From Torpedo marmorata (taxonomy: Eukaryota), in the NCBI GenBank assembly GCA_977017645.1, contig OZ360220.1, forward strand, positions 282,410,001-282,474,000: a stretch of 64,000 bases of DNA. The letters are read 5' to 3'. Positions 9,112 to 42,842 of this stretch are shown here, piece by piece; position 1 is the stretch's first letter, and every line of letters starts with the position of its first letter. Both the position numbers and the translations under genes were made by a program. The notes below the pieces were generated by a model. The model was not told where the DNA came from, searched no databases, and saw nothing but the letters and a program-made list of their open reading frames with translations.

Positions 9112-9475
9112 CAGTGGTTTTCAAACTGACCCCCCCCCCCCAACTCACATTCCACCTTAAGCCAAAAATGCTCTGTGATTAGTAAGGGATTGCTTAAGGT
9201 GGTATGTGAGTGGAAAGAAAAAGTTTGAAAACCACTGTTTTAATCATACCTAATTGACTCGTTATGTGCTCGGTTTCGTAATTCCAAAGGAAATGGGCCA
9301 ATGACAATTTTTCTCAAGCAAAATATTTCAGTAACAATTGGGTCTAGAGCAGTGGTTCTCAACCTTCCCACTCACATACCACCTTAAACAATCCCTTACC
9401 AATCACAGAGCACTTATGGCATAGGGATTCCTTAGGGTGGAATGTGAGCTTAGGGGGGCAGTTTGAAAATCACTG
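9112..9475. mobile_element. Non-autonomous hAT (Charlie-like) MITE, composite
   Basis: 16-bp TIRs CAGTG(G/A)TTTTCAAACT and a perfect 8-bp TSD GTTTAGAG (9104-9111, 9476-9483). Confidence 0.85.
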
Positions 9476-9641
9476 GTTTAGAGGAAAGGGGATGGGAAAT
9501 TTTGCAGAATTCCTTAAAATAATGAAGAGGCAAGATTAAATGCATACTGAGAAATTATTTTCATTTAATAGTTTGCCAAAGACCAGTGTTCATGTGCACA
9601 GAAGCAAGGAACAGTATAAAAATTCTTTGGCTGTTCTTCAC

Positions 9642-10065
9642 TGTTAGGAAAAAGTTAATGTTCTGCTGTTAGAATGTGCTTTTAAAATGCTCTTTGAAAT
9701 AGCAGCTGCATGCCTGTGCAGACATATGAAACCAAAAACCAGACAGGGGGAGTGTTTTGCAATTAATGCTAGAATTGAAATAGGGTAGTGGCAAAAGCTT
9801 GCGATAGGGGCGAACGTATGGTACTGCAAACAAAGAAACAGTGATGGGGGATGAAATGCCTAAGAAGTACATGATGATAAGGGGTAGAACAGAATGTGAA
9901 CTCATGTAACCTGTGAGTAAAATAAATGTATAAAAGGCTGCTACACTGATGGAAAGGCACTCAACTGCTCTGACAGCAAGTTGAGTCCAAATCTGCAGAC
10001 TTGTAACTATTAAAAGTCAACCGCTGCTGCTTTTGCTGAGACTCCGTGTGAGTTCTTTTCTGACA
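9642..10065 (+). repeat. ERV 5' LTR (TATAAAA 9929-9935, ATTAAA 10009-10014)
   Basis: Starts TGTTAG and ends TGACA. Direct repeat of 17075-17498 at offset 7433, with no differences seen. Confidence 0.95.
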
Positions 10066-10068
10066 ACT

Positions 10069-10087
10069 TGGGGGACTCGTCCGGGAT
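10069..10087 (+). promoter_or_regulatory. Primer binding site, tRNA-Pro-like
   Basis: TGGGGGACTCGTCCGGGAT versus the MLV tRNA-Pro PBS TGGGGGCTCGTCCGGGAT (one extra A), 3 nt after the LTR. Confidence 0.85.
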
Positions 10088-10329
10088 CCCCACTCCGGTC
10101 GTGAGGGTCGAGAGAAGGGACATCGGAGAGGGTGCACCCCGCCGAGTTCGGCGGTCCCCGACTCCTTGCTCGTCGTACCCACGCGGCTTGAGCGAGTGAT
10201 ATCCGGACAGCGCAGAGCGGAAGACTGGGAAGAAGTAGAAGGACGGTCCAGGGCGGCACACCGGGTGAGTACGACGGTACTAGGATAAGGTGTGACCGGG
10301 TAAAAGGGGACCAAGCCGGGAAGGTAACG

Positions 10330-11895
10330 ATGGGAGGGGGAGGCTCAAAGAAAAGGGAGCCAAAGGAGAGTTCGGGTGTAATCCCGAAGGTTCCTCCAGA
10401 TAGTCCCCTCGGGAGAATGTTAGCAAATTGGGATTTGGGACGGACGAGAGGAAAGCAGAAAATGAAAATGATCGGGTTTAGTAGTTTATGGTCAAAGCAA
10501 CCGATAAAAGGGCAGTCAGTTTGGTGGCCACCATTCGGGTCAGATGAGGGATGGGTAAGGCAGGTTCTGAATGTGTATGTAAATTCTAAGCCTCATCCGC
10601 AGCCGGATGAAAGGGAATATGCCTCCTGTTGGGTCCCAGGGCCCGGGGATTCAACAAGAAGTTTTAAAATGCAAACGAAGAAGGACGAAGGAGAAGCCCC
10701 CTGGGAAGTATTAAACCATCTACCTCCTCCCTATACTCCTCCGCCGCTGAATAACCCACAGGCTGCCTCTGCCCCAGAGCCCGAACACTCCGAGGGGGAA
10801 GGCGAGGAGTCCAATGAAGGGCAAGAGGAGAATAGAAGGGGACCGAGAGAGCAAGAGAGGAGGACTCCAGCGGAGGGTCGTCCAGAACAGGTAGTGACAA
10901 GATCCGTGGCAAAACGTGAACAGAAGGGCAAGGAGGAGGTAAAGGTATGTCCGCTGAGAGAAGTACCCATGGGCGGTCCCGACGGAGGAACTGGGTATGT
11001 GAATGTGCCTCTAACAAGTACAGAGGTGCGAGCCTTCAAGAAGGAAACTAAAAATTTACTTGAAGACCCAATGGGCCTGGCGGAACAACTAGATCAGTTT
11101 CTGGGTCCAAACATTTATACATGGGATGAAATGTATGCCATAATGGGAACGTTATTCTCCGCCCAAGAAAGGCAGATGATCAGACAGGCGGCCATCGTGG
11201 TATGGGAAAGGGAGAGGCCGCAAGGGGCAGCAGTAAACGGAGAGCAGAAATTTCCCCTAGTGGATCCAAGATGGGATAAGCAGACCGAAGCAGGACGGAG
11301 GAACATGGGGGAACATCGGGAATATATGATAAAAGGAATAAGGCAGTCCGTTCCGAAGGGGCAGAATTTTGCTAAGGCATTCGGTAGTCATCAGAATCCG
11401 GACGAAAGTCCCACTGATTTTTTAGAAAGAATACAGAAAAACATGCAGCAATATGCAGGAGTGGATCCCGAAACTGGAGTGGGACAGCAATTAATACGGG
11501 TGGAATTCGTCTCTAAAGCATGGCCAGACATAAGAAAGAAACTGGAAAAATTAGAAGACTGGAACTCTAAGCCACTCAGTGAGTTGTTGAGGGAAGCCCA
11601 GAAGGTGTTTGTAAGGAGAGATGAGGAGAAGCAAAAGAAGACAGCTAAAATAATGGTCCAGACGGTACGGCAGGTTACAGCTGATAGCCGAGACCGACCC
11701 ACCCCTTGGTCTGACCGAGGTCGACCTCCGAAAAATAGGGGATGGTCTGACCGAAATCGATCACAGGAGCAAGGAAGAAGTGATCGCCGTATCTCCCGCT
11801 GTTTCCATTGTAATGAGGAGGGACATTTTAAGAGGGAATGTCCCAGGTACCGGCGGGAAGTGAGATCTTATGCGATGATGGAAGACGAAGAATAG
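10330..11895 (+). CDS. gag: Retroviral Gag, 521 aa, intact
   Basis: MGGGGS myristoylation motif, PPDSPLG matrix motif, PPPY late domain, MHR-like QNPDESPTDFLERI, one CCHC knuckle (CFHCNEEGHFKREC), UAG stop. Confidence 0.95.
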   Translation: MGGGGSKKREPKESSGVIPKVPPDSPLGRMLANWDLGRTRGKQKMKMIGFSSLWSKQPIKGQSVWWPPFGSDEGWVRQVLNVYVNSKPHPQPDEREYASCWVPGPGDSTRSFKMQTKKDEGEAPWEVLNHLPPPYTPPPLNNPQAASAPEPEHSEGEGEESNEGQEENRRGPREQERRTPAEGRPEQVVTRSVAKREQKGKEEVKVCPLREVPMGGPDGGTGYVNVPLTSTEVRAFKKETKNLLEDPMGLAEQLDQFLGPNIYTWDEMYAIMGTLFSAQERQMIRQAAIVVWERERPQGAAVNGEQKFPLVDPRWDKQTEAGRRNMGEHREYMIKGIRQSVPKGQNFAKAFGSHQNPDESPTDFLERIQKNMQQYAGVDPETGVGQQLIRVEFVSKAWPDIRKKLEKLEDWNSKPLSELLREAQKVFVRRDEEKQKKTAKIMVQTVRQVTADSRDRPTPWSDRGRPPKNRGWSDRNRSQEQGRSDRRISRCFHCNEEGHFKRECPRYRREVRSYAMMEDEE

Positions 11896-14800
11896 GGGGG
11901 TCAGGGGTTCCCACCCTTGGGGACGGATTATCGGCAGGAACCCCTGGTAAATCTTAAATTGGGTCCCCAAGGGGTAGAAACCACCTTCATGGTGGATTCA
12001 GGAGCTGAACGCTCTAGCGTTATAAGTTTACCGCCAGGAAGACAGGCTGGAAATAAAACAATTGGAATATCCGGCATTGGAGGAAAAACTATCCAAGTAC
12101 CCATAGTGGATAATGTGGAGGTTCAATACAAACAAAGAACCACACAGCAGGACCTGCTCTTGTTGCCGTCAGCGGGGTTTAATTTGTTGGGCCGGGACAT
12201 ACAGGTACGGTTGGGGATAGGTACAATACCTAAGGGGGGAAAAGTAGTAGTCCGGATGCTCCAACTGAGGGAAGAAGATGGTAGGAAGATCTCCCCTGAA
12301 GTTTGGTACAAAGAGGGAAATAGAGGCGGACTAAATGTGCCACCCCTTCGCATTACCCTGTTACCGGGAAGCCGTCCCGTGAGAAGAAAGCAATACCCCA
12401 TCGCTTTAGACGGAAGAAAGGGGCTTCAACCTGTAATTGAAGGTTTGATTAAGGACGGTTTGCTAGAAGAATGCATGTCGCCCTTTAACACCCCTATATT
12501 GCCAGTGCGAAAGCCGGATGGAACCTATCGGATGGTACAAGATTTACGAGGTTTAAACGCAGTGGTCCAAACAAGATACCCGGTAGTACCGAATCCTTAC
12601 ACCTTAATGAGTAAAATATCCCCTGATCACGAGTGGTTCAGCGTTATCGACCTAAAGGATGCCTTCTGGAGCTGCCCCTTAGAGGAGAACAGTCGTGATA
12701 TGTTCGCCTTCGAATGGGAAAATCCGTTCACTGGAAGAAGACGACAGCTTAGGTGGACAGTGTTACCTCAAGGTTTTACTGAATCACCAAACTTGTTTGG
12801 ACAAATATTGGAACAAGTATTGGTAGAGTTCCAATGTGATCCTACAAACCAGTTATTGCAGTATGTAGATGATTTACTTCTTTCCGGACCTGAGGAGGGT
12901 GAAATCAGAGAAGACACTATCAGACTGCTAAATTTCTTAGGGGGGCAAGGTCTCAGGGTCTCCAAGACAAAGTTACAATTTGTGGAAAAAGAAGTCCGAT
13001 ATTTGGGCCATGTATTAACTAAGGGAAATCGCTGCATCACGTCCGAAAGAGTGGCTGGAATTATTAAACTACCCATACCACAAAGTAAAAAGGAAATACG
13101 CCAATTTTTGGGACTAGTGGGCTATTGCCGAATATGGATCGAAAATTACACACCACTGGTTAAGTTCCTATATGAAAAACTAGGAGAAGAAGAAAGGAAG
13201 GTTCGATGGACAGAAGAGGAGGAAAGATTGTTTGAAAAGATAAAAGGACAGTTGATAAGAGCACCAGTATTGGCTCTCCCCGCCTTGGAAAAGCCATTTC
13301 AACTATATGTCAATAATGCTGAGGGAATCGCGTCTGGAGTCTTGACCCAAGAGAAGGGGGGAAAGCGCCAGCCAGTAGCCTTTTTATCTAAAATGCTGGA
13401 TCCGGTATCCAGAGGATGGCCAACCTGCATCCAAGCCGTGGCCGCCACTGCAGTACTAGTGGAGGAAGCACGGAAACTGACGTTTGGAGGAAAAATCACC
13501 GTGTACTCACCACACTCAGTGAGTGCCCTGTTGGCACAAAAGGCCCACCGGTGGCTAACAGATTCCAGGATCTTGAAATATGAGATCATTCTGATGACCG
13601 GCGAAGACCTGAATTTCACGAAGGATCCCAACCTCAATCCGGCCCAGTTCCTATACAGGACGGGAGGAGAGGAAGGGCCAGAGCATGATTGCCTTGAGTT
13701 GGTGGACCTGCAGACCAAGAGTCGTGAAGACCTACAGGAGGTGCCCCTGGAAGAGGGACAGGAGTTATATATTGATGGCTCCTCCAGGTGCATTGATGGA
13801 ATACGACATAGCGGATATGCTATCATTGACGGGAAAACTGGAAAAAGGGTGGAATCAGGCAGGCTCCCTGCCAGCTGGTCGGCTCAGTCATGTGAACTGT
13901 ATGCCCTCCAGAGGGCACTGAAATGTCTGGAGGAGGAAGTCGGAACGATATATACGGATTCTAAGTATGCCTATGGCATTGTCCATACGTTTGGGAAGAT
14001 ATGGAAGGAGCGAGGATTGATTACAGCACGAGGAAAAGGTCTCGCACACGAGCAGATGGTGGGTCTGACCCTAGAAGCCCTGGCATTACCCACAGAAATT
14101 GCAGTGGTACATGTTCCGGGTCATCAGAAGGGACACTCTCCAGAGGCCGTAGGAAATCGACTAGCTGATGAAGAAGCTAAGCGGGCAGCCATTGAAGAAT
14201 CGGTACAACTTTTAACTCTGATACCGGTGAGAGAAAAGCCGACGAAACTACCGGTCTTTACGCAAATGGAGATCGATAAAATGAACCAACTAGGAGCCCA
14301 GAAGGATGCCGATGGTAAATGGATGATCTCCGACGGAAGACAAGTACTGAACAGGGAAGTTACCCGCAACATTCTTCAGCAGCTACATCAGCAAACCCAC
14401 TGGGGAGTCCAAGCCCTATGTGATACGGTGCTCAGGGAATATGCATGTAAAGGAATCTACACCCTGGCTCAGCAGGAAGTGGTGGGATGCCCCATATGCC
14501 AAAAGGTAAATAGGAAGGTGATGCGAGCTACTCCCGGAGGAGGACAGCCCCTGGCCCTGAGACCATTTCACCGAGTCCAGATCGACTTCACCGAATTGCC
14601 CCCGGTACAAAGGTGGCGGTACTTGTTGGTAATTGTGGACCACTTCACAAGATGGGTAGAGGCATATCCAACCACCAAGGCAGATGCTCCAACAGTAGCT
14701 CGAATATTGTTGGAAAACATTATTCCAAGGTATGGGATAATGGGTTCTATAGACTCTGACCGTGGGACCCACTTTGCGTCTAAAACCCATCAGCTTATAT

Positions 14801-15409
14801 GTGTGGCTTTAGGGATAGAATGGAAATTGCACACCCCTTGGCACCCTCAAAGCTCAGGTCGAGTCGAGCGAATGAACAGCACTCTAAAAACTCAGCTTAC
14901 TAAACTGATGACTGAGACTAAGTTACCCTGGACAAAGTGCCTCCCAATAGCCCTGCTGAGAATCCGAACGGCACCACGGAAGGATATCGGGGTCTCTCCC
15001 TATGAGATGTTGTTCGGACTACCATATTGGAGCCAAGTAGAGGGATATCCTACGTTGCAAGGGGGGGGATATCTTTATAAGGGACTATTTACTGGCATTG
15101 TCTCGTTCCTTTGCAGAGTTGCGGAAAAAGGGGCTTTTGGCCCAGACTCCCCCATTGGATTTCGCTCTACACCAGATTGTGTCCGGAGATTGGGTCCTTG
15201 TGAAAACTTGGAAACCAGAAAAACTCCAGCCGCAGTGGGAGGGGCCTTTTCAGGTCCTATTGACTACCGAGGCCGCAGTACGAACAAAAGAAAAAGGGTG
15301 GACTCACGTCTCCCGGGTGAAAGGACCCGTGTCTAAGAGGGACAGTGAATGGACTTGTGAACCTACTGAGCGTCCCTTACACGTGAAACTGAAGAGACTT
15401 TCGAAATGA
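11896..15409 (+). CDS. pol: Pro-Pol (protease, RT, RNase H, integrase), in frame with gag via UAG readthrough; one +1 frameshift at the G8 run 15061-15068
   Basis: VDSGA protease, LPQG/YVDD RT, YIDGS and YTDS RNase H, HHCC and D,D(35)E integrase. Removing one G joins ORF 11917 to ORF 15098-15409, which carries the integrase C-terminus (WEGPFQVLLTT). Confidence 0.92.
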
Positions 15410-17046
15410 ATTGGAGTTGTATTGCTGTGTTGTTAGCATTGCTTGCTTTTCTCTCTGTACCAACCAATGGGGAAAGAAAGAAAGTGAGGGGAAGGAGGGG
15501 GGCCGTCCTCTCCGGGGTAGTCCCCTCCAGGTGTTATGATGGTGAAATATTATGCTGGAATACATCTAATGGCAATCGCAACCCATATTGGTTAGTTAAG
15601 AATGCATGGCCAAATGATCCTACCCAGGATTCTGCGCCTTGTCCGCAAGAAACATCATTCTGCGCTACACGAAATTGGGAACGGATAACATGTCCCGATC
15701 TCCCTTTACAATGTGAAGGAAGATTGGAGAAGAGGCGAGAGGATCGTATAGTGCAGGGTCGCGGGGCCCCAAAACGGAAAGAAAATCTTTTTATAGACTT
15801 GGCTACGCGTATAGCCACCAGTCTAAATGTGAGTGGTTGTTGGGTTTGTGGAGGACCTTATATGAGTGAGCAATGGCCCTGGGTGGGTGAGCCGGTAAAT
15901 GTATGGCAGCTCCTGGAAAAGAATTGGACAAACAGACGGGATCCGGGAGAAGAAAGTTGGAAATTGACCAACTTTCCAGAGGGACAAGTATGTGTTGAAG
16001 GTGGTGGAAGTGTAAAGGTGGGAGTAAGCCCTTGCAAACATGTTAAGTTGGCAAAAAGCGATGGCTACCGGACATGGAGGCCAGAGGCCCCTATGTGGTA
16101 TATATCAGGGAAGGGGAAAGATAATTGTACCCGACTCTCTGGGAAAGGGGAATTATGGAATTGCAGTGGATCGAGTCCTTTTGAGGGAGTGCCTATAGTA
16201 CGGAATGTGTGGAGAAATGCAAGGGAAGGGGGACCTGCCCCTGAGGGTCTTTTCTGGATATGTGGTACTCAAGCATACACTAGGTTACCCTCCGGCTGGG
16301 CTGGTGTTTGTTTTTTAGGTATTATTCGACCAGAATTCTTTCTTCTTCCTGAGGAGGATGGGAAAGATTTAGGGATAAAGTTGTTCGATTCCCTACAACG
16401 AGAGACCCGTGGCATAAAGGTGGGGGAATGGGGTGATGAGTGGCCCCCGGCCCGAATTATTGAATATTATGGACCTGCGACATGGGCACAGGATGGGTCC
16501 TGGGGTTATCGCACACCCATCTATATGTTAAATCGAATTATTCGACTCCAGGCGGTGGTTGAGATAATTACGAATCAGACCGCACTGGCATTAGAGTTAT
16601 TGGCCAACCAACAGACCCAGATGAGAACAGCCATTTACCAGAACAGGTTAGCTCTTGATTACCTTTTGGCCTCAGAAGGGGGTGTTTGTGGAAAATTTAA
16701 CTTGACCAATTGTTGCCTAAAGATAGACGACAACGGTAAAGCGGTGCTGAAAATTTCGGACAAGATCCGAAGGCTAGCTCATGTGCCCGTCCAGCGTTGG
16801 AATTCTTTGGGTAAACTGAGTTGGCTCGATGACCTCTTTGGAGGGACATGGTGGAAAACAGCATTGCTAATGGTAGGGGGCATATTGTTCGTGCTCCTCT
16901 TGTTACCCTGCATTATTCCCTGTTTCCGCATCCTTATAACTCGAATTGTGATGCAAGTGATGCAACCAGGGGAACCTGCTGACCCTGTGAAAATGTTGCT
17001 CCAAAGAACCCCAGAGGGAGGGGGTTGGACCCCCTGGAACCCTTAG
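15406..17046 (+). CDS. env: Envelope glycoprotein, 546 aa, intact, ERV3/HERV-R-type
   Basis: Signal peptide, CWVC motif, RETR furin-type site, YGPATWAQDGSWGYRTPIYMLNRIIRLQAV, ISD QNRLALDYLLASEGGVC, CX7CC, TM helix. The ATG overlaps the pol stop (ATGA). Confidence 0.95.
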   Translation: MNWSCIAVLLALLAFLSVPTNGERKKVRGRRGAVLSGVVPSRCYDGEILCWNTSNGNRNPYWLVKNAWPNDPTQDSAPCPQETSFCATRNWERITCPDLPLQCEGRLEKRREDRIVQGRGAPKRKENLFIDLATRIATSLNVSGCWVCGGPYMSEQWPWVGEPVNVWQLLEKNWTNRRDPGEESWKLTNFPEGQVCVEGGGSVKVGVSPCKHVKLAKSDGYRTWRPEAPMWYISGKGKDNCTRLSGKGELWNCSGSSPFEGVPIVRNVWRNAREGGPAPEGLFWICGTQAYTRLPSGWAGVCFLGIIRPEFFLLPEEDGKDLGIKLFDSLQRETRGIKVGEWGDEWPPARIIEYYGPATWAQDGSWGYRTPIYMLNRIIRLQAVVEIITNQTALALELLANQQTQMRTAIYQNRLALDYLLASEGGVCGKFNLTNCCLKIDDNGKAVLKISDKIRRLAHVPVQRWNSLGKLSWLDDLFGGTWWKTALLMVGGILFVLLLLPCIIPCFRILITRIVMQVMQPGEPADPVKMLLQRTPEGGGWTPWNP

Positions 17047-17054
17047 CACATTCT

Positions 17055-17074
17055 AAAAAGAAAAAGGGTGGAAT
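17055..17074 (+). promoter_or_regulatory. Polypurine tract
   Basis: AAAAAGAAAAAGGGTGGAAT immediately before the 3' LTR. Confidence 0.85.
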
Positions 17075-17498
17075 TGTTAGGAAAAAGTTAATGTTCTGCT
17101 GTTAGAATGTGCTTTTAAAATGCTCTTTGAAATAGCAGCTGCATGCCTGTGCAGACATATGAAACCAAAAACCAGACAGGGGGAGTGTTTTGCAATTAAT
17201 GCTAGAATTGAAATAGGGTAGTGGCAAAAGCTTGCGATAGGGGCGAACGTATGGTACTGCAAACAAAGAAACAGTGATGGGGGATGAAATGCCTAAGAAG
17301 TACATGATGATAAGGGGTAGAACAGAATGTGAACTCATGTAACCTGTGAGTAAAATAAATGTATAAAAGGCTGCTACACTGATGGAAAGGCACTCAACTG
17401 CTCTGACAGCAAGTTGAGTCCAAATCTGCAGACTTGTAACTATTAAAAGTCAACCGCTGCTGCTTTTGCTGAGACTCCGTGTGAGTTCTTTTCTGACA
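17075..17498 (+). repeat. ERV 3' LTR
   Basis: Identical by eye to 9642-10065. The ORF track gives identical antisense translations in both copies. Confidence 0.95.
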
Positions 17499-18509
17499 CC
17501 CTTCAGCAGTAATCGCGTGGAGCAGGCATCTAATTTAATGCTGATTCTTTGAGTTCGTCCAAAAGGTAGGTGGACCTCTGCTTAGGGTGAAGGCCATAAT
17601 CATAAAATTAGATGGTACCAATGAATATAAATCAGATTTAATTTCCCAACCAATTAAAACATTGGACATTTCAAGGAATCAGAGAGGAATTCTTCAGTTT
17701 TTTTTCCCAATTGCCTTTTGTATTTTTTCTCTTTTCCAGAAGACTATCTAACATGGGGTGGGGTGGGCAGCTGCATGATAGGGAGAAGATGGAGAGCCAG
17801 TTTGGGCATTTGGGGTCAATGCAGTGAGGATTTAGCTGCATAGTTTGTTTGTACACTGGTCCCCCTGTTTGGTGTTTTAGAATTCAGAACGTGTCCCAGG
17901 AGAGCTCAAAGACAGGGTCCCCCTGGACCTCCTGGTTCAAATTTTGCTGCAATGCAACTTTCAAAAGGAGCGTTGCACAGGGAATGACATAATCACATGC
18001 AGTTCTATTGCAGAAATTGCCTTAGAGTCACATGGTTGGCCTTAAATGGAATCAAATACAATTTCCTCCCGGTTGTTAGGCTGAGAAAACAGATCAAATT
18101 TCAATGAAATGCAATTTTCTAAATGTGATACATTGAGAATGGTTTTTTTTTTCCAAATCACCTCCATTACCTTAAGATTTTAGACAAAGTCCCTTTCCTT
18201 CAATCAATGAGCACTCTCACCTCTGCACTCTCAAGTGTTCACTAAGTTCACTCTAAGTGTTATGTACTCACACTTTTGCTGTCAACATTAATTTCAATTA
18301 CTCTCTTTTACATGTTCATAGACTTTATTTACCTTGGCCCCACCCTTCCAAAATATTCTCCTCTCGCCCCATCCACCACCCATCTGCACTAATAGACGTA
18401 TTGGCATTTTATTCTCTCTGATTGGTAGCATTAAAACACTGAGCCTCCTGTTCAAGTTCTCAATATTTTCCCCCTCTTTACTTCCCTCATCCTTCTTCTA
18501 CCATTGTCA

Positions 18510-19507: not shown

Positions 19508-20885
19508 CTGCTTCAAAAGGGCATCAATCATCCCGGTACCCAAGAAGAGTAGTGTGGGCTGCCTCAACGACTACCGCCCAGTAGCACTAACTTCTACTGT
19601 GATGAAATGCTTTGAGAGGCTGGTCATGGCCAGAATTAACACGTACCTAAGCAAAGATCTGGACCCACTGCAATTCGCCTATCGTCACAATCGCTCCACA
19701 GCAGATGCAATATCGCTGGCTCTCCACTCAGCTCTGGATCACCTCGAAAACAGCAATTCATACATACGGCTGCTCTTCATCGACTACAGCTCGGCCTTCA
19801 ATACCATTATTCCCTCAGTGCTGGTCAAAGAGCTACAAACTCTAGGCCTCTGTACCCCACTCTGCAACTGGATCCTTGACTTTCTCATCTGAAGACCACA
19901 GTCAGTACGAATTGGAATCAACATCTCCTCCTCACTGATTATTTACACAGGTGCACCCCAAGGATGCGTGCTTAGTTCACTGCTCTACTCGTTACACACC
20001 CATGACTGTGTGGCCAGGCACAATTCCAATGCCATCTACAAGTTTGCCGATGACACCACAGTTGTCGGCAGAATCACAAACGGCAATGAGGAAGCGTACA
20101 GGAGGGAGATAGATCAGCTCGTTGAATGGTGTAACAACAACAACCTTGAGCTCAACGTCAGCAAAACCAAGGAGATGATTGTGGACTTCAGGAGGAAGTC
20201 AGGGGAACACAACCCAGTCCTCATCGAGGGCTCAGTAGTGGAGAGTGTCAAGAACTTCAAATTCCTGGGTGTCAACATCTCCGAGGATCTGTCCTGGAGC
20301 CTCCATGTTGATGCAATCACGAAGAAGGCCCGCCAGCAGCTATAGTTTGTGAGGTGCTTGAGGAGATTCGGTATGTCACTGAAGACTCCAGAAGACTTCT
20401 ACAGGTGTACCATGGAGAGCATTCTGGCTGGTTGCATCACTGCCTGGTATGGAGGCGCCAACTCCCAGGACAAGAGTAAACTCCAGAAGGTTGTTAACTC
20501 GGCTTGTGACATCACAGGCACCAGACTTCACTCCATCGAGGACATCCACATGAGGTGGTGTCTTAAAAAAGCAGCCTCTATCCTCAAGGACCCCCACCAC
20601 CCAAGCCGTGCCCTCTTCACTCTGCTTCCATCGGGAAAAAGTACAGGAGCCTAAAGACGAGCACTCAGCGGCACAAGGACAGCTTCTTCCCCGCTGCCAT
20701 CAGATTCCTGAATAATCAATGAACAAAAGATACTGCCTTACTTTTCGTGCACTACTATTTTTATTTTTATTTTTTATATTATTGTTGTAAGATTGTGCAT
20801 AATATGAATGTTTGCACTATGATGCTGTTGCAAAACACCGAATTTCGTGACTTGTTCATGACAATAAATTCTGATTCTGATTCTG
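19508..20885 (+). mobile_element. Rex1/Babar-type LINE, 5'-truncated (RT, C-terminus, (ATTCTG)n tail)
   Basis: ORFs carry [27 protein letters not shown] and KFADDTT. Near-identical to 35500-36852. Confidence 0.85.
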
Positions 20886-21009
20886 AATATCATAGTCCTA
20901 AACAAACACATCCCCAATCTCCAGGACCTTGGTCTCAGCAGCCCCCTCTGCAACTGGATCCTGTCCGGCAGACTGTAAGCAGCGAGGAATGGAGACAGCA
21001 CCACCTCCA

Positions 21010-21789: not shown

Positions 21790-24700
21790 CGGCAGAATTA
21801 CCACTAATTGGTAGTGCAAAAAAAAAACTGTACACAGCGTAAACATGTAAACAAACAAAGAACTGTAAACAGATAACGAAAGTAAACAAACTGACTGTGC
21901 AATACGCAGCTGATGAGCAATAAAGTACACAAGGAAGTCCTTAAATGAGTCTCTGATTGAGTCGTTGACGAGTCTGATGGTGGAGGGGTAGCAGCTGTTC
22001 CTGAACCTGCTGGTGCGAGTCTTGTGGCACCTATACCTCTTTCCTGATGGCAGCAGCGAGAACGGAACGTGTGCTGAGTGGTGTGGGTCTTTGATGATTG
22101 CTGCTGTTCTCCGACGGCAGCGTTCCCTGTAGATGTACTCAATGGTGGGGAGGGTTTTGCCTGTGATGTCCTGGGCTGTGACCACCACCTTTTGGAGTGC
22201 TTTACGCTCAGGGGTATTGGTGTCCCAAAACCAGACCGTGATGCCACCAGTCAGCACACTTTCCACCACACCATCTTTAGAAATTTGCCAGGGTTTCTGG
22301 TGTCATACCAAACCTCTGCAAACTCCTGAGGAAGTAGAGGCACTGACGTGCTTTCTTCATGATGCCATTGGTGTGTTGGGTCCAGGACAGATCCTCCGAG
22401 ATAGTGACTCCCAAGAACTTAAATTTGCTCACCCTCTCCATCTCTGATCCCCCAATGATCACTGGATTGTATACCTCTGGCCTTCCCTTCCTGAGGTCAA
22501 CAATCAGCTCCTTAGTTTTGGAGACATTGAGTGCAAGGTTGTTGTTGGTGCACCATTCGGCCAAGTTTTCAATCTCCCTCCTGTATGCTGACTCATCACC
22601 TTTCTTTATACAACCCACTACAGTGGTATCGTCAAATTTGTAGATGGTGTTATTGTCGTACCGAGCCACACAGTCATAGGTGTAAAGTGAGTAGAGCAGG
22701 GGGCTAAAAGCGCAGCCCTGTGGTGCTCCGGTACTGATGGAGATTGTGAAGTAGATGTGCTTACCAATCCTCACTGATTGTGGTCTGGAGGTGAGGAAAT
22801 CCATGATCCAATTACACAGTGGCGTGTTGATTCCCAGGACTTGGAGTTTGATGATCAGTTTTGAGGGGATGATGGTGTTAAATGCCGAACTGTAGTTGAT
22901 AAAGAGCATCCTGATTAATGCATCTTTACTGTCCAGGTGTTCCAGGGCTTTGTGTAGAGTCAGTGAGATGACATCCGCCGTAGACCTGTTGCTTCGATAG
23001 GCGAACTGGAATGAATCCATGTCACCGCTCAGACAGGAGCTGATATGCATCATCACCAGCCTTTCAAAACACTTCATCACTGTTGATGTAAGTGCTACTG
23101 GTCGATAGTCATTAAGGCAGGTTACTACACTCTTCTTGATGCCTGTTTGAAACAGGTGGGTACCACACCCTGCTGGAGTGAGATATTGAAGATATTCATG
23201 AGTACCCGCATCTCCTCCATTTCCCGCTCATCTGCCCTGGCCCCCTCTGCCCCCAGACACAACAAACATAGAATACCCCTCATCCTCACCTACCACCCCA
23301 CCAGCCTCCGCATCCAACACATTATCCGCCGGAATTTCCGGCACTTGCTGCAGGATCCCACCACCAGACACATTTTTCCTTCTCCTCCCCTCTCGGCCTT
23401 CCGTAGGGACCGCTCCCTCCGCGATTCACTCGTGCACTCGTCCCTCCCCACCCATCGCACCCCCCGGAACCTTCCCCTGTGCCAGCAGGAGGTGCAACAC
23501 CTGCGCCCACACCTCCCCCCTCACCATGGTCCAGGGCCCCAAACAGGCCTTCCAAGTGAAGCAACACTTCACTTGTACATCCAGAGGACTTATTTACTGC
23601 ATCCGGTGCTCCCTTTGTGGCTTTCTATACATTGGAGAGACCGGTCGTAGATTGGGAGATCGCTTCGCTCAGCACCTCCGCTCGGTTCGCAACAACAGCG
23701 ACCTCCCAGTGGCCAACCATTTCAATTCTGGGTCACACTCCCACACTCACATGTCTGTCCATGGCCTCATGTACTATCCCACCCAGACTACCCGCAAACT
23801 GGAGGAACAACATCTCATATTCCGTCTGGGCACTCTCCAGCCAGATGGAATTAACATTGACTTTTCTGCTTTCCACTAAACCTGCTTGTTGTTCCCTTCC
23901 CCTCCCCCCTCACCTGTCCTTCCTGTGTTTCTCCAGCTACCCAGCCATCCCTCCTCCCCCTCTTTGCTACTGTCCCCTCCCTCCTTTCTCCACCTATTAT
24001 CTCCTGCCTTTCCCACCCCCCTTCCCTCCTCACTCCTTTGTTCGGACGTCTGCCGGCATTTTCTCATACTTTGAAGAAGGGCTCAAGCCTGAAACGTCGG
24101 TTATGTATTTCTACCTTTGCTACATACAAGACACTGTTTGACCTGCTGAGTTCTCCAGCTTTTGTGTTTTTTACTCTAACCACGGTGTCTACAGATTTTC
24201 GTGTTTACTTTTCATGAGTACATTGGTAAGTTGGTCATCACAGATTTTTTAATACTCGGCAGGTACTCCGTCTGGGCCGGATACTTTCCTCGGATTCACT
24301 CTCCTGAAGGCAGCACGCACGTCATCCTCAGATACGGACAGGATGGGATCATCAGGGGACGTGGGGGTGCAGAGGCGTGGTTCTTCGCTGTTACTGTCAT
24401 CAAATTGGGCGTAGAAGGCGTTGAGGTCCTTCTGGGAGAGAAGCTTTGCCGTCTGCTACTTTACCGGATTTGGTTTTGTAGCAGATTATTGCATTGAGGC
24501 CCAGCCACAGCTGTCGGGTCTCCCTTGTCGTTTCCATTTTCTTCCAGAATCTCCACTTCGCTCGGCAGATGGCTTTCCGCAGGTCATACCTGCTTCTTCT
24601 GTATTGATCTGGATCTCTGGACTTAAATTCCTGTGATCTGGCTCTCAGCAGGTTTGAGTTTCATTGTTCATCCAGGGTTTCTGGTTGGAGAAAACCCTGA

Positions 24701-28099: not shown

Positions 28100-28378
28100 T
28101 GGGCAGCACGGTTAGCGTAACAGTTAGTGCAACGCCTTTACAGCGCCAGCGATCAGGACGGGGGTTCGAATCTGTAAGGAGTTTGTACGTTCTCCCCGGA
28201 TCTGCGTGGGTTTTCCCCGGGGGCTTTGGTTTCCTCCCACCGTTTGAAACATACTTGGGGTGTAGGTTAATTGGGTGTAAATTGGGCGGCACGGACTCGT
28301 GGGCCGAAATGGCCTGTTACTGTGCTGTATGACTACATTTAATTTAATTTAAATTTAAAATTTAATTTAAAATTTAAC
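28100..28378 (+). mobile_element. tRNA-derived SINE with V-domain-like core
   Basis: tRNA-like head with GGTTCGAAT B-box, core GGAGTTTGTACGTTCTCCCC..TGCGTGGGTTTTCC..GGTTTCCTCCCAC, and an (AATTTA)n tail. Confidence 0.8.
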
Positions 28379-29960: not shown

Positions 29961-31905
29961 TCAGATCTGATACTATTTATTGTCATGTAATAAAATAGAA
30001 ATGTAATATAACAGAAAATTGCCTTTAGCCTGCCATGAACAGACAAAGATTCGCCATTAGCAATGCCCGGCGCCCCTTTGAATCAGAGAAAGAGAAGCAA
30101 AAAAAGAGTCCCCTCAGAATCAGAGTGTCCGTGGATTTGCCTCCAATATTCCCACAGCCTCTGCAGCCGCACAAGATTCCAGTTCAGTAAATTAAGAAGA
30201 TTAATGATTGCTTTGAAGCTGGAAAATGTATTACTTTTCAAAGAATGAAAGATAAATTTAATATATTAGATAACACACTTTTTGCTTATTATCAAATTAG
30301 AGCTTTTTTGATTGAGAAATTGGGAAATGCTTTGATTTTGCCAAGACAAAATGAATTAGAATTATTAGTTACTAAAGGAGAAGTTAATACATTTATTTCT
30401 CAAATGTATAAATTGTTTCAGAGAAAATTGCCTAAAGTAGGAATGCATAAATCAAGATTAAAATGGGAATTAGACCTGAATGTAAGAATAGATGAAAATC
30501 ATTGGAAAGAATTATCTAAATTAAGTATGACAAAGATTATTAATGTTAGATATAGATTAGTTCAATACAATTTTTTTCATCAATTATATTTAACACCTAA
30601 AAAATTAAAGAAATTTAATCCGACATTATCAGGTTTATGTTTTAGATGTAATAAGGAAGAAGGATCTTTTGTACATTGTACATGGTTTTGTCCAAAAGTT
30701 TATGATTTTTGGTTGAAAGTTAAAAAATTCTTAGATAAAGTATTTAAAATTACGTTTCCAATGGATCCTATGATATTTCTGTTTGGCGATATTAGAAAAT
30801 TTGGTATTAAGATGAAATTAAATATGTATCAAATAGAATTTTTGCGAATTGCTTTAGCTGTTTCAAAGAAATGCATTGCTATTACTTGGAAATCTGATTT
30901 AGATTTAGGATTAGAAAGATGGCATGCAGAATTTCGTTCATGTATACCACTTGAGAAAATTACTTATAATTTACGTAATAAATATCATTTTTTCTTAAAA
31001 ATTTGGAGCCCATATATGAAAGTTGTTGGCTTAAGAATTTGAGGATCTCTGGGTATTGGGTCTACTGGCATACTTGACCTCCATAATAGAAGTAGTTTAT
31101 AGATTGGCATTCCCCTAACTCTATTTTTCTCTTTCTTTTTCTTTCTTCTTTTTTTATTTTTATTTTATTTTATATTTTTATTAGATTAGTGGGGTTGGGG
31201 AGGGGAGGGAGGGAGGGGGGGGGTGAAAATGTATCACAAATAATTTCATAATTGTATATTTTACTTTATGTATTTCGTGATTTAAAAATTTTAAATAAAA
31301 TATTTTAAAAAAAAGACTCCAGTTCAGTTCAAACCATCGGCAACCTGATCCCAGATCCAAACCTCCACCACGATGAGGAAGCTTCAGTGACCAGGGCCCT
31401 TCAGGAGCCCTTCTTGCCCTCAGCACCTTCTCGAATCCCGGTTCCGATACCTGGTTCCCATGAGCCAGTCTCCAGCAGCCTGCAGTCTGGTGTGAGTCCT
31501 TTGACCTCAGGTCGCCTGCAGCCCGCAGCCTGTGTGGGTTCCTCAGCTGCTTAGCCCTTCGCTGAATTTGCTGCCATGGTCACCGTCCTACAGGATTGTC
31601 TCCTATGCTCCTCCTCAACGGGGGTGTTCTACCCGTTACTCGTGCTTTGCACCGGTCCGCTGCTCCCCCGGAGTCTGCAACCCGTCGTGGCTGCTGCCAA
31701 ACACAGGTGCTGCCATCTTGGGTCTGGACCACGCAGTTGCAGGATTTTAAATAAAACCGATGGCTCATTCAACAGGCTTTTTAAAGCCTGTGCGGAGCTG
31801 TCGGCAGTACGACTGGGTGGTAGGACCCTTCAGGGGAGCGCTATGTCTCCGCTCCCTGCTCTCCCCATGTACGCACCAGCATTACAGCCCCTCCGGAAGC
31901 GCCAC
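29961..31905 (-). mobile_element. Non-coding, non-autonomous retroposon with Rex1/Babar-like 3' tail, split by an L1
   Basis: Related to 47165-47500. Minus-strand end reads CATGACAATAAA. Continuous across the L1 TSD. The 5' limit is approximate. Confidence 0.55.
30189..31312 (+). mobile_element. L1-clade LINE 3' fragment (ORF2 C-terminal zinc-binding region, ORF 30245-31042)
   Basis: CFRC..H..W.C motif. TSD AAGA(T/C)TCCAGTTCAGT at 30173-30188 and 31313-31328. AATAAA and A-tail. Confidence 0.9.
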
Positions 31906-33450: not shown

Positions 33451-33645
33451 GCACCTACAGAGAAAGGAAAAGTTTTCCTTCAGGATGATTTATCAGGCTC
33501 GGAAAATGTTTGAGGTTCAAACAAATTTTTTAAGCCATAGATAAAGAAGGGAAGAGAGAACAAAGAGGAAGCTTTGTGATAGGGTGAAGACCAGGAGAGA
33601 TTGAATGGCACAAATGTTGTTGGTGTCCTCAGAGGGGTGGTAAAG

Positions 33646-36600
33646 GGAAATAAGATGGCGCCTTACAGCGGCGACTCTTTGCGTGCAGCTCTGAAGGGAA
33701 TAATCAAATATTCCTGTTCAGAACTTCTAAAAATCAAACAAAAAATAAGAAACATAAAATCAAACTTACCCGACAACATGGATGTACAAAGATCGCTGGC
33801 AGACCTTGGAATCGGCAGAAGAAGTAGTCTCCGTCGGGCCGCGGGACCTTTAAACAGCTCACGCAAGTACTACAACAACACCGCGGGAGTTTTAAACAGC
33901 GAGAGAACGGGCTATTTAAACTTCGCGGGAGTCGCAAACAGCAGGCACTCAGCACAGTTAAACATCGCGGAGGATTTAAAGGGACAGCGCAAGGACCGGT
34001 TAAACACTGCGGGAACTACCAGCAGTGGACCCACGGGCCAGGTAAAGAAGACCCGACCACGTGGATGCAGAGTGGGGCTACAGGTCAAGCTGAAACGAGG
34101 GGACCTGAAGCTTCCGCTCGCTACCATCCTCCTGGCCAACCTACAATCCTTGGAGAACAAACATGATGAACTCCAAGCCAGACTTCAACATCAGAGAGTT
34201 ATCAGGGAGTGCTGCGTGATGTGCTTTACAGAAACGTGGCTAAACGTGGACATTCCGGACACGGCGCTGCAGCCCAAGCGCTACACCCTCCATCGCGCTG
34301 ACCGAACACCGGCGTCTGGAAAAACCAGGGGAGGCGGCGTTTGTGTCATCATCAATTCATCGTAGTGCACAGACGTGACGGTCATGTCCCAGTCCTGCTC
34401 CCCTGACCTGGAACATCTGGCGATCAGGTGTCGCCCATTCTATCTGCCGAGGGAGTTCTCCGCCATCATCCTGGTCGCAGTGTACATTCCGCCCCAGGCT
34501 AACGTCAGGCTGGCACTGGAGGGACTGAGCACTGTGATAAACAGCCATGAGACAGCACATCCTGATGCCTTCCCGATCATTGTGGGAGACTTCAATCAGG
34601 TCAATCTGAAGAAGTCACTGACAAACTACCACCAACATGTCACATGCGAGACCAGGGGAACCAACACACTCGACCACTGCTACACTACCGTGAAGAACGC
34701 ATACCGAGCCATACCACGACCGCACTTCGGCAAGTCTGATCACCTGGCTGTACTTCTACTCCCGGCGTACAAGCAGAGACTGAAGACCACAGCACCAGTG
34801 GTGAGGACGGCGAAAGTATGGTCGAGGGGGGCGGAGGAGCGTCTGCAGGACTGCTTTGAATCGGTGGACTGGAACATATTCAAGCACTCAGCCATAGACC
34901 TAAATTAATATGCAACAGGTGTCACCGACTTCATCAAGACCTGCGTGGATGAGTGTGTGCCCACGTGCAAATACCGGGAGTTCCCCAACCAGAAGCCCTG
35001 GATGAATCAGAGAATTCGAAACCTGCTGAGGATGAGAACAAGGGCATTTAAGGCCAGGGACAGGGATCTTTACAAGAAGTCCAGGCACGACCTGCGGAAG
35101 GCCATCTCTGAAGCAAAGTGGCAATTGCGGAGGAAGCTAGAGACAGAGACAGATACACGCCAGCTATGGCAGGGAGTGCAGGCCATTACAGCCTACAAAG
35201 CGAGGGCGAACACTATAGACGGCTGTGATGCTTCACTACCCGATGAGCTGAACACCTTCTATGCCCGCTTTGAGAAGAAGAACAAAACAGTGCCTAATAG
35301 AATCCCTGAAAAGGCTGAGGACCCTGTGATATCTGTCTCTGAGGGCGACGTCAGAACATCATTCAAGAGGGTGAACCCTCGCAAGGCGTCAGGCCCTGAC
35401 AGCGTACCTGGCAGGGTACTGAAAATCTGCACCAACCAACTAGCCGGAGTGTTCACGGACATTTTCAACCTCTCATTGCGGCAGTCAGAGGTTCCCACCT
35501 GCTTCAAAAGGGCATCAATCATCCCGGTGCCCAAGAAAAGTAGTGTGGGCTGCCTCAACGACTACCGCCTAGTAGCACTAACTTCTACTGTGATGAAATG
35601 CTTTGAGAGGCTGGTCATGGCCACAATTAACACATACCTAAGCAAAGATCTGGACCCACTGCAATTCGCCTATCGTCACAATCGCTCCACAGCAGATGCA
35701 ATATCGCTGGCTCTCCACTCAGCTCTGGATCACCTCGAAAACAGCAATTCATACATACGGCTGCTCTTCATCGACTACAGCTCGGCCTTCAATACCATTA
35801 TTCCCTCAGTGCTGGTCAAGAAGCTACAAACTCTAGGCCTCTGTACCCCCCTTTGCAACTGGATCCTTGACTTTCTCATCGGAAGACCACAGTCAGTACT
35901 AATTGGAAACAACGTCTCCTCCTCACTGATTATCAACACAGGCGCACCCCAAGGATGCATGCTTAGTCCACTGCTCTACCCATGACTGTGTGGCCAGGCA
36001 CAATTCCAATGCCATCTACAAGTTTGCCGATGACACCACAGTTGTCGGCAGAATCACAAACGGCAATGAAGAAGCGTACAGGAGGTAGATTAGCAGCTCG
36101 TTGAATGGTGTAATGGCAACAACCTTGAGCTCAACGTCAGCAAAACCAAGGAGATGATTGTGGACTTCAGGAGGAAGTCAGGGGAACACGACCCAGTCAT
36201 CATCGAGGGCTCAGTAGTGGAGAGGGTCAAGAACTTCAAATTCCTGGGTGTCAACATCTCCGAGGATCTGTCCTGGAGCATCCACGTTGATGCAATCACA
36301 AAGATGGCTCGTCAGCGGCTATACTTTGTGAGGTGTCTGCGGAGATTCGGTATGTCACCAAAGACTCTCGTAAACTTCTACAGGTGTACTGTGGAGAGCA
36401 TTCTGGCTGGTTGCATCACTGCCTGGTATGGAGGCGCCAACTCCCAGGTCAAGAGTAAACTCCAGAGGGTTGTTAACTCGGCCTGTGACATCACAGGCAC
36501 CAAACTTCACTCCATCGAGGACATCTACATGAGGCGGTGTCTTAAAAAAGCAACCTCTATCCTCAAAGACCCCCACCACCCAGGCCATGCCCTCTTCACT

Positions 36601-36852
36601 CTGCTTCCATTGGGAAAAAGGTACAGGAGCCTAAAGACGAGCACTCAACGGCACAAGGACAGCTTTTTCCCCGCTGCCATCAGATTACTGAATAATCAAT
36701 GAACCAAAGACACTGCCTTACTTTTCGTGCACTATTGTTTATAATTTTTTATAGTAATGTCGTAAGATTAATATGAATGTTAATTGCACTATGATGCTGC
36801 CGCAAAACACCGAATTTCATGACTTGTTCATGACAATAAATTCTGATTCTGT
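33646..36852 (+). mobile_element. Near full-length Rex1/Babar-type LINE, single APE-RT frame with stops and a frameshift
   Basis: Starts AAGATGGCG. Collinear ORFs 33601-34365, 34375-34908, 34945-35985 and 36154-36702 (FTETWL, GDFN, SDH, RT motifs). Ends with an ATTCTG tail. Confidence 0.9.
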
Positions 36853-37934: not shown

Positions 37935-38187
37935 GCGGCACGGTTGGCGTAGTGGTTAGTGCAACACCTTTACAGTGCCAGCGATCGGGGCCGGGATCGA
38001 ATCCCACGCTGTCTGTAAGGAGTTGGTATGTTCTCCCCGTGTCTGCAAGGGTTTTCCCCGGGGGCTCCGGTTTCCTCCCACCATTCAAAATGTACCGGGG
38101 GTGTAGATTAATTGGGTAAATTGGGTGGCACGTACTCGTGAGCCGAAATGGCCTGTTACCATGCTGTATGTCTAAATTTAAAAATTA
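37935..38187 (+). mobile_element. tRNA-derived V-SINE-like copy
   Basis: Same family as 28100-28378. Confidence 0.8.
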
Positions 38188-38783
38188 AACAACAATAAAT
38201 TATTTATTTATTTTTTACATTATCTAAATTAATTTAAAGACTAAAGAAAAGCCTTTTACAGACTTTGAACGAGCTGTCAAGGCCATCAGGGTATGTGTGG
38301 GTGACTTCAGTGCATGATCTTGAAGCCAGTGTATTTCGCTGCCAGATGCTTGCTAGGTGCGGATGGTTGGCTTGTTCAGCTCCCCACATCTGGAAACGTA
38401 ACAGTGGGTGGCTGGGTCTCCGGGAGCTGAGTCCAGGCAGTAGATTTGGTTTGTGTTTCTGCCTCATTCAGGTACCTTACTCAGCATATTATGTCCCACT
38501 GTGCACTTTAAGGGTATGTGTACTATCGACAGTGTGAGAGGCCTTTAATCTACCAGAAATGAGTTCAGGTCGTCTGCCATCGACCATGGGCCCCCATCAG
38601 ACTGGCAGTGTTATGGACCCCACATCACAGCCGGCATGTTAGAGTGCTCTTGTGTTTTTTATTATTTTCTCCACAATTTGAATATTTTTTGAATATAACA
38701 TTAGTAACAAGATAAATTAGAAATAAACAAAGGTGTACAAAGTAAAAATTTGAATTTTGAGTTTGATTGACACCCATAATCTT

Positions 38784-41005: not shown

Positions 41006-41654
41006 ATAATCTTGTGCAAAGGTTGAATTGGCGTCAATTGCCTCATTCAACATGCCATTTGCAAAATCTTCATGTGCATCATGGTACCTTACTAGGAAAT
41101 GTAAAATAAAACGAGAGGAACACTCAATATGTTATATTTTTTATACATGAATAAACCCTAATCAAAAATATTACATATAACAATTAAAATGTTTTGATCT
41201 TGCAACAGATCAGTTTTTGAACTTTAGGGCTCAATATTAAATTTATTTACTTGGCTTAATATTTGCTTAATATTCTTTAATGTTCTTACTGAATAATACA
41301 TCCATCTTTGTCCAGAAAATCCAGCATCCACGCCTGTTTGATTCTGTCAGACATGGGTGCCTGCTTTGCAGCATTGTAGCATTGTCGCAGACTGTCTGGA
41401 ACATTCAATATGTTAATAGTTAAATATGGCATCAAACAAATAAACCATTCTCTGTTTTGGATGATACTAACGTACTTACATGTATAAATGCATGCATGAA
41501 GACACTAGGCCTTTTGTGCTCCTCGGTTTGCCTGCTAAATGCCCTTTCTCTAATTGAAGAATATATTCACCGTTCAAAACGTACCGGGGGGTAGGTTAAT
41601 GGGGTGTAAATTTGGCGGCACGGACTCGTGGGCCGAAATTGCCTGTTACCGTAT

Positions 41655-42842
41655 TGTGACGGAATTGTTATTATTAATCTTTAGTTATAAAATATATTAT
41701 CTTAGTAGTTATTTTGTGGGTTGGATTCAGGGGTACACTGACACTTACACACAGAAACCATTTTGAGAGAAGGAGAGTCTGCTAATTCATTGTTCTGCTG
41801 AAAGCCTGTTTGTTCAAAGAGACTGTTTGATTGCTAATTCAGAGAAGTAAGCAATTGTCCATTGAAATGTTGAAGACAATGAATGTTTACTCAGTGAAAC
41901 ACCTGAGTACACAAGAAGACAATTGCTGGTTAGCTGGGCAGACAGCCCGGAAGCATTTGCTCGTAATTGCTTTTGGAAGAGAGGAACTTCAAACAAAAAC
42001 AGATATGAGGTGTGGAGGGTTATTGGCCGGGTGCGGGTCAGTGGGACTAGGTAGGAGAAGGTGTTCGGCATGGACTAGAAGGGCCGAACTGGCCTGTTTC
42101 TGTGCTGTAATTGTTATATGGTTATATGTCATGTCACGTGATTAAAGACATTTGAAAAACTGCATTTTAATATTGCACCAAGATTCATCTGAAGTCAGAA
42201 ATGCCGTAACATTCTGTGAGTAACACAGGCTTACAGTGGCTCCAGAAGGGATGACCACTTTGCTGCTTCTCTTTGTCAAAAGAGAGAGCAGTGCTGCGGT
42301 GGCCATTTTAAATGGTCACTTGTGACTGACCCAATTCTGGGTAAAAGAAATCAAGATCATTCTTGTTTCTGGATCATAACCATTTTGATGGTTACTTCGT
42401 TTAACCCTTGCCTGGGTTTGTGAAATCATCGTGGAAGAAAACACAAGTTCTGAAACCTTCAGGCAAGAGAAGGAGATCATTCATATGAAGAAACAATTCT
42501 CTGAAAACAACTCTACAAGAATTTCGTGAGTTTTGAGAAGTCTGATGCCTCACACCTACTCCATAATTGCTTTTGAACAGCAGTAAAGACTTTGAGTTTC
42601 AACACAAAAGCTTTCTGAGACTGAACTTTAAAATCTTCTCTTCAGAATTATACCTAAACTGTAATAGTTTGGGTTTTGCCACACACACACATATATACAT
42701 TTGCGCATAGTGGGGTTAAGTTAGAGTTAAGTTTAGAGTTAAGTAAGAAGTGTTATGTTATTAATAGTTATTAATAAAATTATTGTTTTGAAGATACCAT
42801 TGTCTTGGTGAATTTCTATTGCTGCTGGTCTAGGTCGTAACA
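41655..42842 (+). mobile_element. Solo LTR (1188 bp) inserted in a SINE fragment; contains a small CR1 3' end (~42007-42128)
   Basis: TGTGACG…CGTAACA termini, 4-bp TSD GTAT (41651-41654, 42843-42846), AATAAA near 42773. Strand inferred from the polyA signal. Confidence 0.75.

Follow-up and report, generated by a model that had tools for sequence, protein, structure and literature searches.

Does the provirus at positions 9642–17498 of a 64,000-nucleotide stretch of Torpedo marmorata DNA (contig OZ360220.1 of assembly GCA_977017645.1, forward-strand positions 282,410,001 to 282,474,000; hereafter the window) record a recent retroviral invasion of this elasmobranch genome, and could the virus still be replicating? 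An initial annotation, made from the sequence alone, had described the element as an essentially intact, very recent HERV-I/IP-like provirus. We find that the provirus is real and nearly complete, with one break in pol and a non-canonical junction. We consider it probable that a gamma-like (class I) retrovirus from the HERVIPADP lineage, with a syncytin-Mar1-like (EnvR group 3) envelope, entered the germline here and that the insertion is young. Ongoing replication or insertional polymorphism appears more plausible for the family than for this single copy, because near-identical, multicopy sister families are present in other elasmobranchs.

Anatomy of the provirus and the break in pol

The features of the element, in window coordinates and all on the forward strand, are as follows.

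9642–17498 (+): provirus, 5' long terminal repeat (LTR) to 3' LTR
9642–10065 (+): 5' LTR, 424 bp, TG...CA ends
9929 and 10009 (+): 5' LTR signals, namely a TATA box (9929) and a candidate polyadenylation signal ATTAAA (10009), with an R-region hairpin
10069–10087 (+): primer-binding site (PBS) of tRNA-Pro type, imperfect match
10264–10270 (+): candidate splice donor GGTGAGT with a putative function, in a CpG-rich leader (observed-to-expected CpG 1.06)
10330–11895 (+): gag, 521 residues, open, ends in TAG
11893–11973 (+): gag UAG and candidate readthrough pseudoknot
11896–15060 (+): pro-pol in the gag frame, stop-free; protease, reverse transcriptase (RT), RNase H, integrase zinc domain and catalytic core
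15061–15068 (+): run of eight G (G8), where pol switches frame; the sole break found in an open reading frame (ORF)
15041–15409 (+): ORF with the integrase C-terminal domain (MLVIN_C, Pfam), in a different frame from the rest of pol
15097–15116 (+): candidate env splice acceptor (AG at 15115–15116), putative function
15406–17046 (+): env, 546 residues, open; TLV_coat (Pfam)
about 17056–17073 (+): polypurine tract
17075–17498 (+): 3' LTR, same sequence as the 5' LTR; outer edges without a target-site duplication

The two LTRs are equal at 424 of 424 bases, both have TG...CA ends, and the match stops where the LTRs end. This bears out the initial annotation, which had also reported open gag and env frames of these lengths, the polypurine tract, the GGTGAGT donor and all pol catalytic motifs. 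Each of these was found, the last as DSG in protease, D/YVDD in RT, D-E-D-D in RNase H and HHCC/D/D/E in integrase, where the regular-expression match to HHCC is partial and the zinc-domain call rests on Pfam. About 6.7 kb of coding sequence contains no premature stop and one frameshift, and the observed-to-expected CpG ratio is 0.54–1.06 within the provirus versus 0.23–0.28 in the flanks. The description "essentially intact" is not supported, as pol in its assembled form is frameshifted at the G8 run and the element lacks a target-site duplication.

Of the 9 Pol proteins and 5 Hypanus models compared, 8 named full-length proteins and 4 models extend across the region, and every one of these shows the change of frame in pol, the alignments following one frame to about 15030–15160 and a second frame from about 15059–15086. 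The G8 run is the only homopolymer of at least 7 bases in the provirus and one of 39 runs of at least 5 in its coding span. The sequencer, reverse transcriptase or the host may each have caused the slip. As the C-terminal domain of integrase is required for integration and is cut off by the break, the copy as assembled could supply Gag, Env, protease and RT, would lack a complete integrase, and would spread only with the help of an intact sibling.

Gag has an MGxxxS start, a PPPY late motif, a capsid (Gag_p30) and a single CCHC finger (Pfam), and is 63% identical to a Hypanus Gag over residues 1–404, the first ~117 residues aligning without gaps. Downstream of its stop codon, two helices could cross to form a pseudoknot. 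The first (11902–11911/11937–11946) is 10 bp long, or 8 bp when counted after an 8-nt spacer, and the second (11914–11924/11963–11973) has 11 bp. Crossing helices of this kind occur in 1 of 311 windows within the provirus, the one at the UAG, versus 3 of 929 windows in the flanks. The readthrough pseudoknot of Moloney murine leukaemia virus (MLV; PMC4178896) follows a UAG after an 8-nt spacer and has two crossing stems and an 18-nt last loop. The candidate shares all of these, but differs in its longer second stem and in the 12 nt between its stems.

By analogy with MLV, a full-length RNA would be driven by the 5' LTR and translated into Gag, readthrough of the gag UAG with the pseudoknot 8 nt downstream as stimulator would yield Gag-Pol, and splicing between 10265 and 15116 would give the RNA for Env. 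The presumed acceptor is the sole strong polypyrimidine-AG within 14900–15405. Reverse transcription would presumably be primed by tRNA-Pro. A three-codon upstream ORF (15349–15360) follows the candidate acceptor and precedes the env ATG.

Target-site duplications of 3–8 nt were sought at the provirus edges and none of the 6 lengths gave a match, including the 4–6 bp that mark a canonical provirus made by integrase; the junction is non-canonical. A 5-mer common to both flanks is offset by 1 nt at the left edge and by 2 nt at the right (chance 1.1% for a total offset of at most 3, calculated post hoc), and together with the missing duplication it is compatible both with a damaged junction and with a chimera of two loci. 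Window self-BLAST found no repeat across either junction. The PBS that the initial annotation had listed is present and of Pro type, but by eye it has no contiguous match to a Pro PBS among the rows printed in the covered parts of the Vargiu supplements, and no tRNA gene for comparison occurs in the 64-kb window.

Classification and elasmobranch relatives

The arrangement of gag and pro-pol in a single frame with a stop between them is that of class I (gamma-like) retroviruses, and RT and RNase H are likewise nearest to gammaretroviruses: the best solved-structure matches are full-length p80 chains (E 1e-162 to 1e-166), and among the further matches Moloney MLV RT fragments reach 1e-64 versus 1e-49 for Pr125Pol. 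At a finer level, Gag, the PBS and the immunosuppressive domain (ISD) of Env appear to fit the HERVIPADP supergroup (HERV-IP/HERV-ADP) and not HERV-I as Vargiu defines it. The comparisons behind this were made by eye with the entries printed in the same parts of those supplements. Two capsid motifs occur there (supplement 3) only in HERVIP and HERVADP Gag entries, and both together only in HERVADP. Across a capsid stretch of 76 residues, 52 are those of the printed HERVADP Gag, and 29 of its first 36 match HERVADP versus about 23 for HERVIP. The printed Gag N-terminus of the HERVI group (taxorder 10250) is unlike that of the provirus, whereas the HERVIP one aligns. Hence, of the likeness to HERV-I/HERVIP10 that had been proposed for the capsid, the HERV-IP part stands, with the motifs closest to HERV-ADP, but the HERV-I part does not.

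Further HERV-IP markers in the covered text are a PBS for Pro or Ile, a single zinc finger and a GPY/F-type domain at the C-terminus of integrase, all of which are present here, with the caveats that the PBS is imperfect and MLVIN_C lies out of frame. The 23-residue ISD is identical to that printed for the Hervip_d subgroup. The provirus thus resembles HERVIPADP, with which avian ChiRV1-like endogenous retroviruses (ERVs) are grouped (PMC4724089, in part), in its Pro PBS, one CCHC finger, in-frame gag-pol, integrase C-terminal domain and Hervip_d ISD. It differs from them in that its host is an elasmobranch, gag and env are both open and the two LTRs are identical; human HERVIPADP copies are 10–19% divergent, and most human HERVIP/ADP elements have another ISD type (PMC4724089).

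Env has a signal peptide, a CWVC motif in the surface subunit (SU) at residue 145, a RETR cleavage site (332–335), the ISD, a CX7CC motif (428–437) and a membrane anchor. It therefore combines the CX7–9CC of the transmembrane subunit (TM) with the SU CXXC, the two marks of the EnvR supergroup, and on sequence grounds seems to fit group 3, the syncytin-Mar1-like one. From the mature N-terminus, for which the point of signal cleavage was chosen by eye, the SU CXXC is ~123 residues away, and ~190 residues separate it from the cleavage site, against ~130 and, to the SU end, ~220 in group 3, to which Env is nearer than to groups 1, 2 and 4 (Hotzel, bioRxiv 10.1101/2024.03.17.585361, as far as its text was covered). 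The resemblance of TM to ERV3/HERV-R Env noted initially is real at the level of TM type, but Env as a whole appears to belong with group 3 and not with the ERV3-like group 4. Group 3 comprises syncytin-Mar1 and avian Envs, and the EnvR supergroup was described from tetrapods; the main text of that preprint returns no match for shark, cartilaginous or ray.

The N-terminal domain of Env sets it apart from these relatives, and appears to be remodelled or divergent. It has kept six cysteines but not the first CxxC, which 10 of 10 named relatives possess, and this may be either a lesion or a family trait. Compensated frameshifts hidden in the 5' part of env were considered and rejected, as 8 and 6 stops interrupt the other two frames, whose best match has E ≥0.7. 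Group 3 is also marked by an RBD-R1 fold at the Env N-terminus, with three disulfides. While the env family profile matches the receptor-binding domain of Suppressyn (E 4.9e-18), the provirus N-terminal domain alone as query gives no such match. Its one match among 1.84 billion representatives was a repetitive 8-stretch, taken as spurious, and the Atlas gave generic TLV_coat clusters. The Env model is of low confidence (mean pLDDT 49.9); in it the N-terminal domain has three strands at pLDDT about 50–59, with residues 17–39 disordered, and Foldseek returned no match at E≤0.001, the best being syncytin-2 SU (6e-3) followed by filovirus GP1. RGRR at Env residues 28–31 is a possible second furin-type site. 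The Pseudopipra pipra Env (P0013) carries a DGGGxxDxxR motif at residue 112, presumably the one with which the RD114/syncytin-1 group binds its receptor; none of 5 further proteins checked has it.

The initial annotation had proposed phylogenies as a check, and we ran them on Env and Pol. The env tree was built from residues 270–470 of the provirus Env and 55 named proteins (54 of 120 listed matches plus 1 more), leaving out unnamed matches and near-duplicates picked by hand, and 29 named proteins went into the Pol tree (28 of 120 listed matches plus 1 more). Both trees were midpoint-rooted, had no outgroup, and were built from named non-human matches only, with no usable HERV-IP/ADP reference among them, so that they show the provirus as part of an elasmobranch clade, itself set among ERVs of birds, reptiles and mammals, and do not place it relative to HERV-IP/ADP. 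With env, the provirus falls in a clade (support 97/97) with Hemitrygon, Chiloscyllium and Hemiscyllium envs, and all 11 of 11 elasmobranch rows form one side of the tree, with support of only 87/9. Adjacent to it, in an order that the tree does not resolve, are a set of bird envs with syncytin-Mar1 (97/96; P0017 is syncytin-Mar1) and a set from monotremes, marsupials, birds and turtles. With Pol, the provirus pairs with Hypanus (99/96) within a set of ERVs from birds and squamates that is supported at 100/100.

Among the matches listed, the closest relatives of the provirus are RefSeq ERVs annotated as "ERV3-1 Env-like" in Hemitrygon akajei, Chiloscyllium, Hemiscyllium and Narcine, together with gag/pol of Hypanus sabinus. 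The six best env matches among those listed come from Hemitrygon, Chiloscyllium and Narcine, and the top Pol identity among the matches listed is 77%, to Hypanus. These matches support the cartilaginous fish host that the initial annotation had judged probable. Overall likeness amounts to 70% for Env (over 83% of its length), 76–77% for Pol and 63% for Gag, which at below 90% identity makes the provirus a separate family, with a different Env N-terminal domain. In the conserved SU-TM stretch, however, Env is 84–87% identical to the Hemitrygon and Chiloscyllium envs, and this closeness of shark and ray envs suggests that retroviruses have moved between elasmobranch hosts.

These sister families are multicopy. 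The Hemitrygon env cluster has 41 members, and 9 full-length ones among 15 listed differ by 1–8 residues and lie on contigs of differing length. In Narcine the cluster comprises 37 members, with 10 of the 15 listed being full-length and differing by a median of 8 residues (range 1–50), and the Chiloscyllium clusters have 27, 11 and 10. Such clusters point to a recent expansion during which env stayed open. The provirus and its multicopy sisters, which occur in four further elasmobranch genera, together suggest recent amplification in sharks and rays of a gamma-like lineage of tetrapod type, and we infer that the lineage originated in tetrapods. The family would most likely have spread by Env-dependent reinfection, as its sister shark and ray families recently appear to have done. 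Five listed Hemitrygon akajei models of 304 residues (P0242–P0244, P0251 and P0252) begin at residue 253 of the 556-residue Env; this shared start is either a common lesion or a recurrent artefact of assembly or annotation.

Young, nearly intact ERVs are common in vertebrates, with 412 in 123 species in one survey (PMC10435555), and one more is ordinary; the value of this provirus lies in its host group. The same survey screened 13 cartilaginous fishes, none of which appears among its listed host clades or orders; within the survey parts and supplements covered, cartilaginous genera occur only in the species list. In the elephant shark only old epsilon-like and SnRV-like elements were described in the covered part of Han 2015 (PMC4422223). 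That report also cites, in the part covered, a HERV-related ERV fragment from the lemon shark, attributed to cross-species transmission. Like our provirus, it is a shark or ray ERV close to human ERVs, but it is a single sequence, known by citation only, whereas the provirus is near-complete and has env. Cross-transmission as proposed for the lemon shark becomes testable with whole proviruses, and an elasmobranch lineage with recent amplification is of more interest than this copy and has a bearing on the risk that retroviruses pose to the health of threatened species. Our literature searches, with subscription journals outside their coverage, returned no description of this elasmobranch lineage.

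Age and competing explanations

Identity of the LTRs had been read as evidence of a very recent insertion, but it sets only an upper bound. With 0 of 424 differences, the 95% bound is 1.6 million years (Myr) at 2.2e-9 substitutions per site each year, a mammalian rate, and 16 Myr with the value of 2.2e-10 that Han 2015 (PMC4422223) assumed for sharks; it corresponds to about 5 million generations at the epaulette shark rate of 7e-10 per generation. At 2.2e-10 the probability of seeing no difference is 0.83 for 1 Myr and still 0.39 for 5 Myr. LTR identity is therefore a weak clock in elasmobranchs. The provirus is nevertheless likely to be young, because it has no nonsense codon and its CpG ratio is higher than that of its flanks.

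Several observations weigh against a young germline insertion of the HERVIPADP lineage, the explanation we prefer. A fresh insertion made by integrase should leave a target-site duplication, and there is none. The pol frameshift may be a base-calling error, and the Env N-terminal domain, which has no close relative, might be damaged. The family is seen here as one copy, its own gag and env being absent from the protein collection searched, and the sister clusters are made up of predicted gene models, with several truncated ones, and may include isoforms or haplotigs. As for the readthrough signal, the folding z-score of the region after the UAG is only −1.16 and non-significant; an Rfam scan of 9400–17800 gave 4 weak matches, none reaching the gathering score, and none for the pseudoknot.

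Could the copy be fully intact, and the frameshift a homopolymer consensus error? This is possible, if doubtful, and would make the provirus a candidate invading ERV (ERVi), possibly polymorphic. The sole break falls on the longest run of the provirus, all else is open, and long-read errors concentrate in homopolymers; but reverse transcriptase and host polymerases slip at homopolymers too. Moreover, four young repeat pairs in the window differ by 161 substitutions and 7 single-base indels, only 1 of which lies in a run of at least 5, so that homopolymer indels are not in excess and the assembly does not look noisy. An assembly error would also leave the absent target-site duplication and the imperfect PBS unexplained. 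Of the features of an ERVi (Wang and Han 2023), the provirus has identical LTRs, but its pol is frameshifted as assembled. An unlikely alternative account of the junction is a chimeric locus, in which ectopic recombination or an assembly mis-join has fused two near-identical proviruses, each contributing one flank; LTR identity would then date the family and not the site. The missing target-site duplication, the multicopy and near-identical sister families, and the fact that neither a host gene nor a common repeat links the flanks would all agree with this, although a small deletion at one junction would erase the duplication equally well, and the 5-mer near both edges fits a single target site with a damaged junction.

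The slow clock leaves some room, albeit limited, for a fixed insertion several million years old, preserved by slow elasmobranch mutation and possibly by gene conversion between LTRs. The bound and zero-difference probabilities above accommodate such an age, and the frameshift, the lost target-site duplication and the imperfect PBS could be accumulated damage; the complete lack of nonsense codons, the slight CpG decay and the near-identical copies in sister families argue otherwise. We regard it as very improbable that env has been co-opted by the host, as a syncytin-like or receptor-blocking protein, and held open by selection. Its nearest mammalian relative in our set is syncytin-Mar1, and env is open whereas pol is broken, but gag and both LTRs are preserved as well as env, and the relatives are multicopy and species-restricted. 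A young, HERVIPADP-lineage insertion with an EnvR group 3 envelope remains our preferred reading. A bolder version, which we regard as possible but doubtful, is that an infectious gamma-like lineage with a HERV-IP/ADP-type gag-pol and a syncytin-Mar1-type env, derived from land vertebrates, circulates or recently circulated among sharks and rays by host jumps, remodelling of the receptor-binding domain and repeated germline invasion, with this provirus a fresh insertion and its break an assembly error. If true, this would be the first invading-ERV candidate of cartilaginous fishes relative to the covered parts of the 2023 survey.

The surrounding window

Pfam identified no host gene in 106 near-flank ORFs or in 136 ORFs farther right (125 of 214 listed plus 11 retroelement-like ORFs), and the window is rich in long interspersed nuclear elements (LINEs) and other retroelements. 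Immediately left of the provirus lies a 364-bp palindromic element (9112–9475; fold z −13.65) that looks like a miniature inverted-repeat transposable element and has what we take to be hAT-like ends. At 51704–55923 (+), ORFs with a SAP domain and gag/protease motifs, presumably BEL/Pao-like, end fused to an L1/Tx1-like zf-RVT fragment. An L1/Tx1-like LINE with ORF1 and endonuclease occupies 56500–60290 (−), with fragments at 30191–31306 and 38775–40894 and several 3' copies that are 90–96% identical. The best named identities of its endonuclease are 56% over half its length to a Narcine model and 36–52% to teleost, coelacanth and Mobula proteins, which as a pointer to the host is no more than suggestive.

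Endonuclease-RT LINE copies are found at 33583–36851, 19508–20893 and 22277–23227, two of them 93% identical. GDSL/SGNH esterase ORFs at 828–1517 and 2466–2987 (−) are, we presume, of the type typical of LINE ORF1, and a GIY-YIG ORF at 23202–23879 (+), with a second copy near 52423, is presumably Penelope-like. Finally, a short interspersed repeat family is present at 28176–28342, 38017–38183, 41586–41657, 43559–43725 and 46602–46717, which we take to resemble the shark and ray HE1 SINE.

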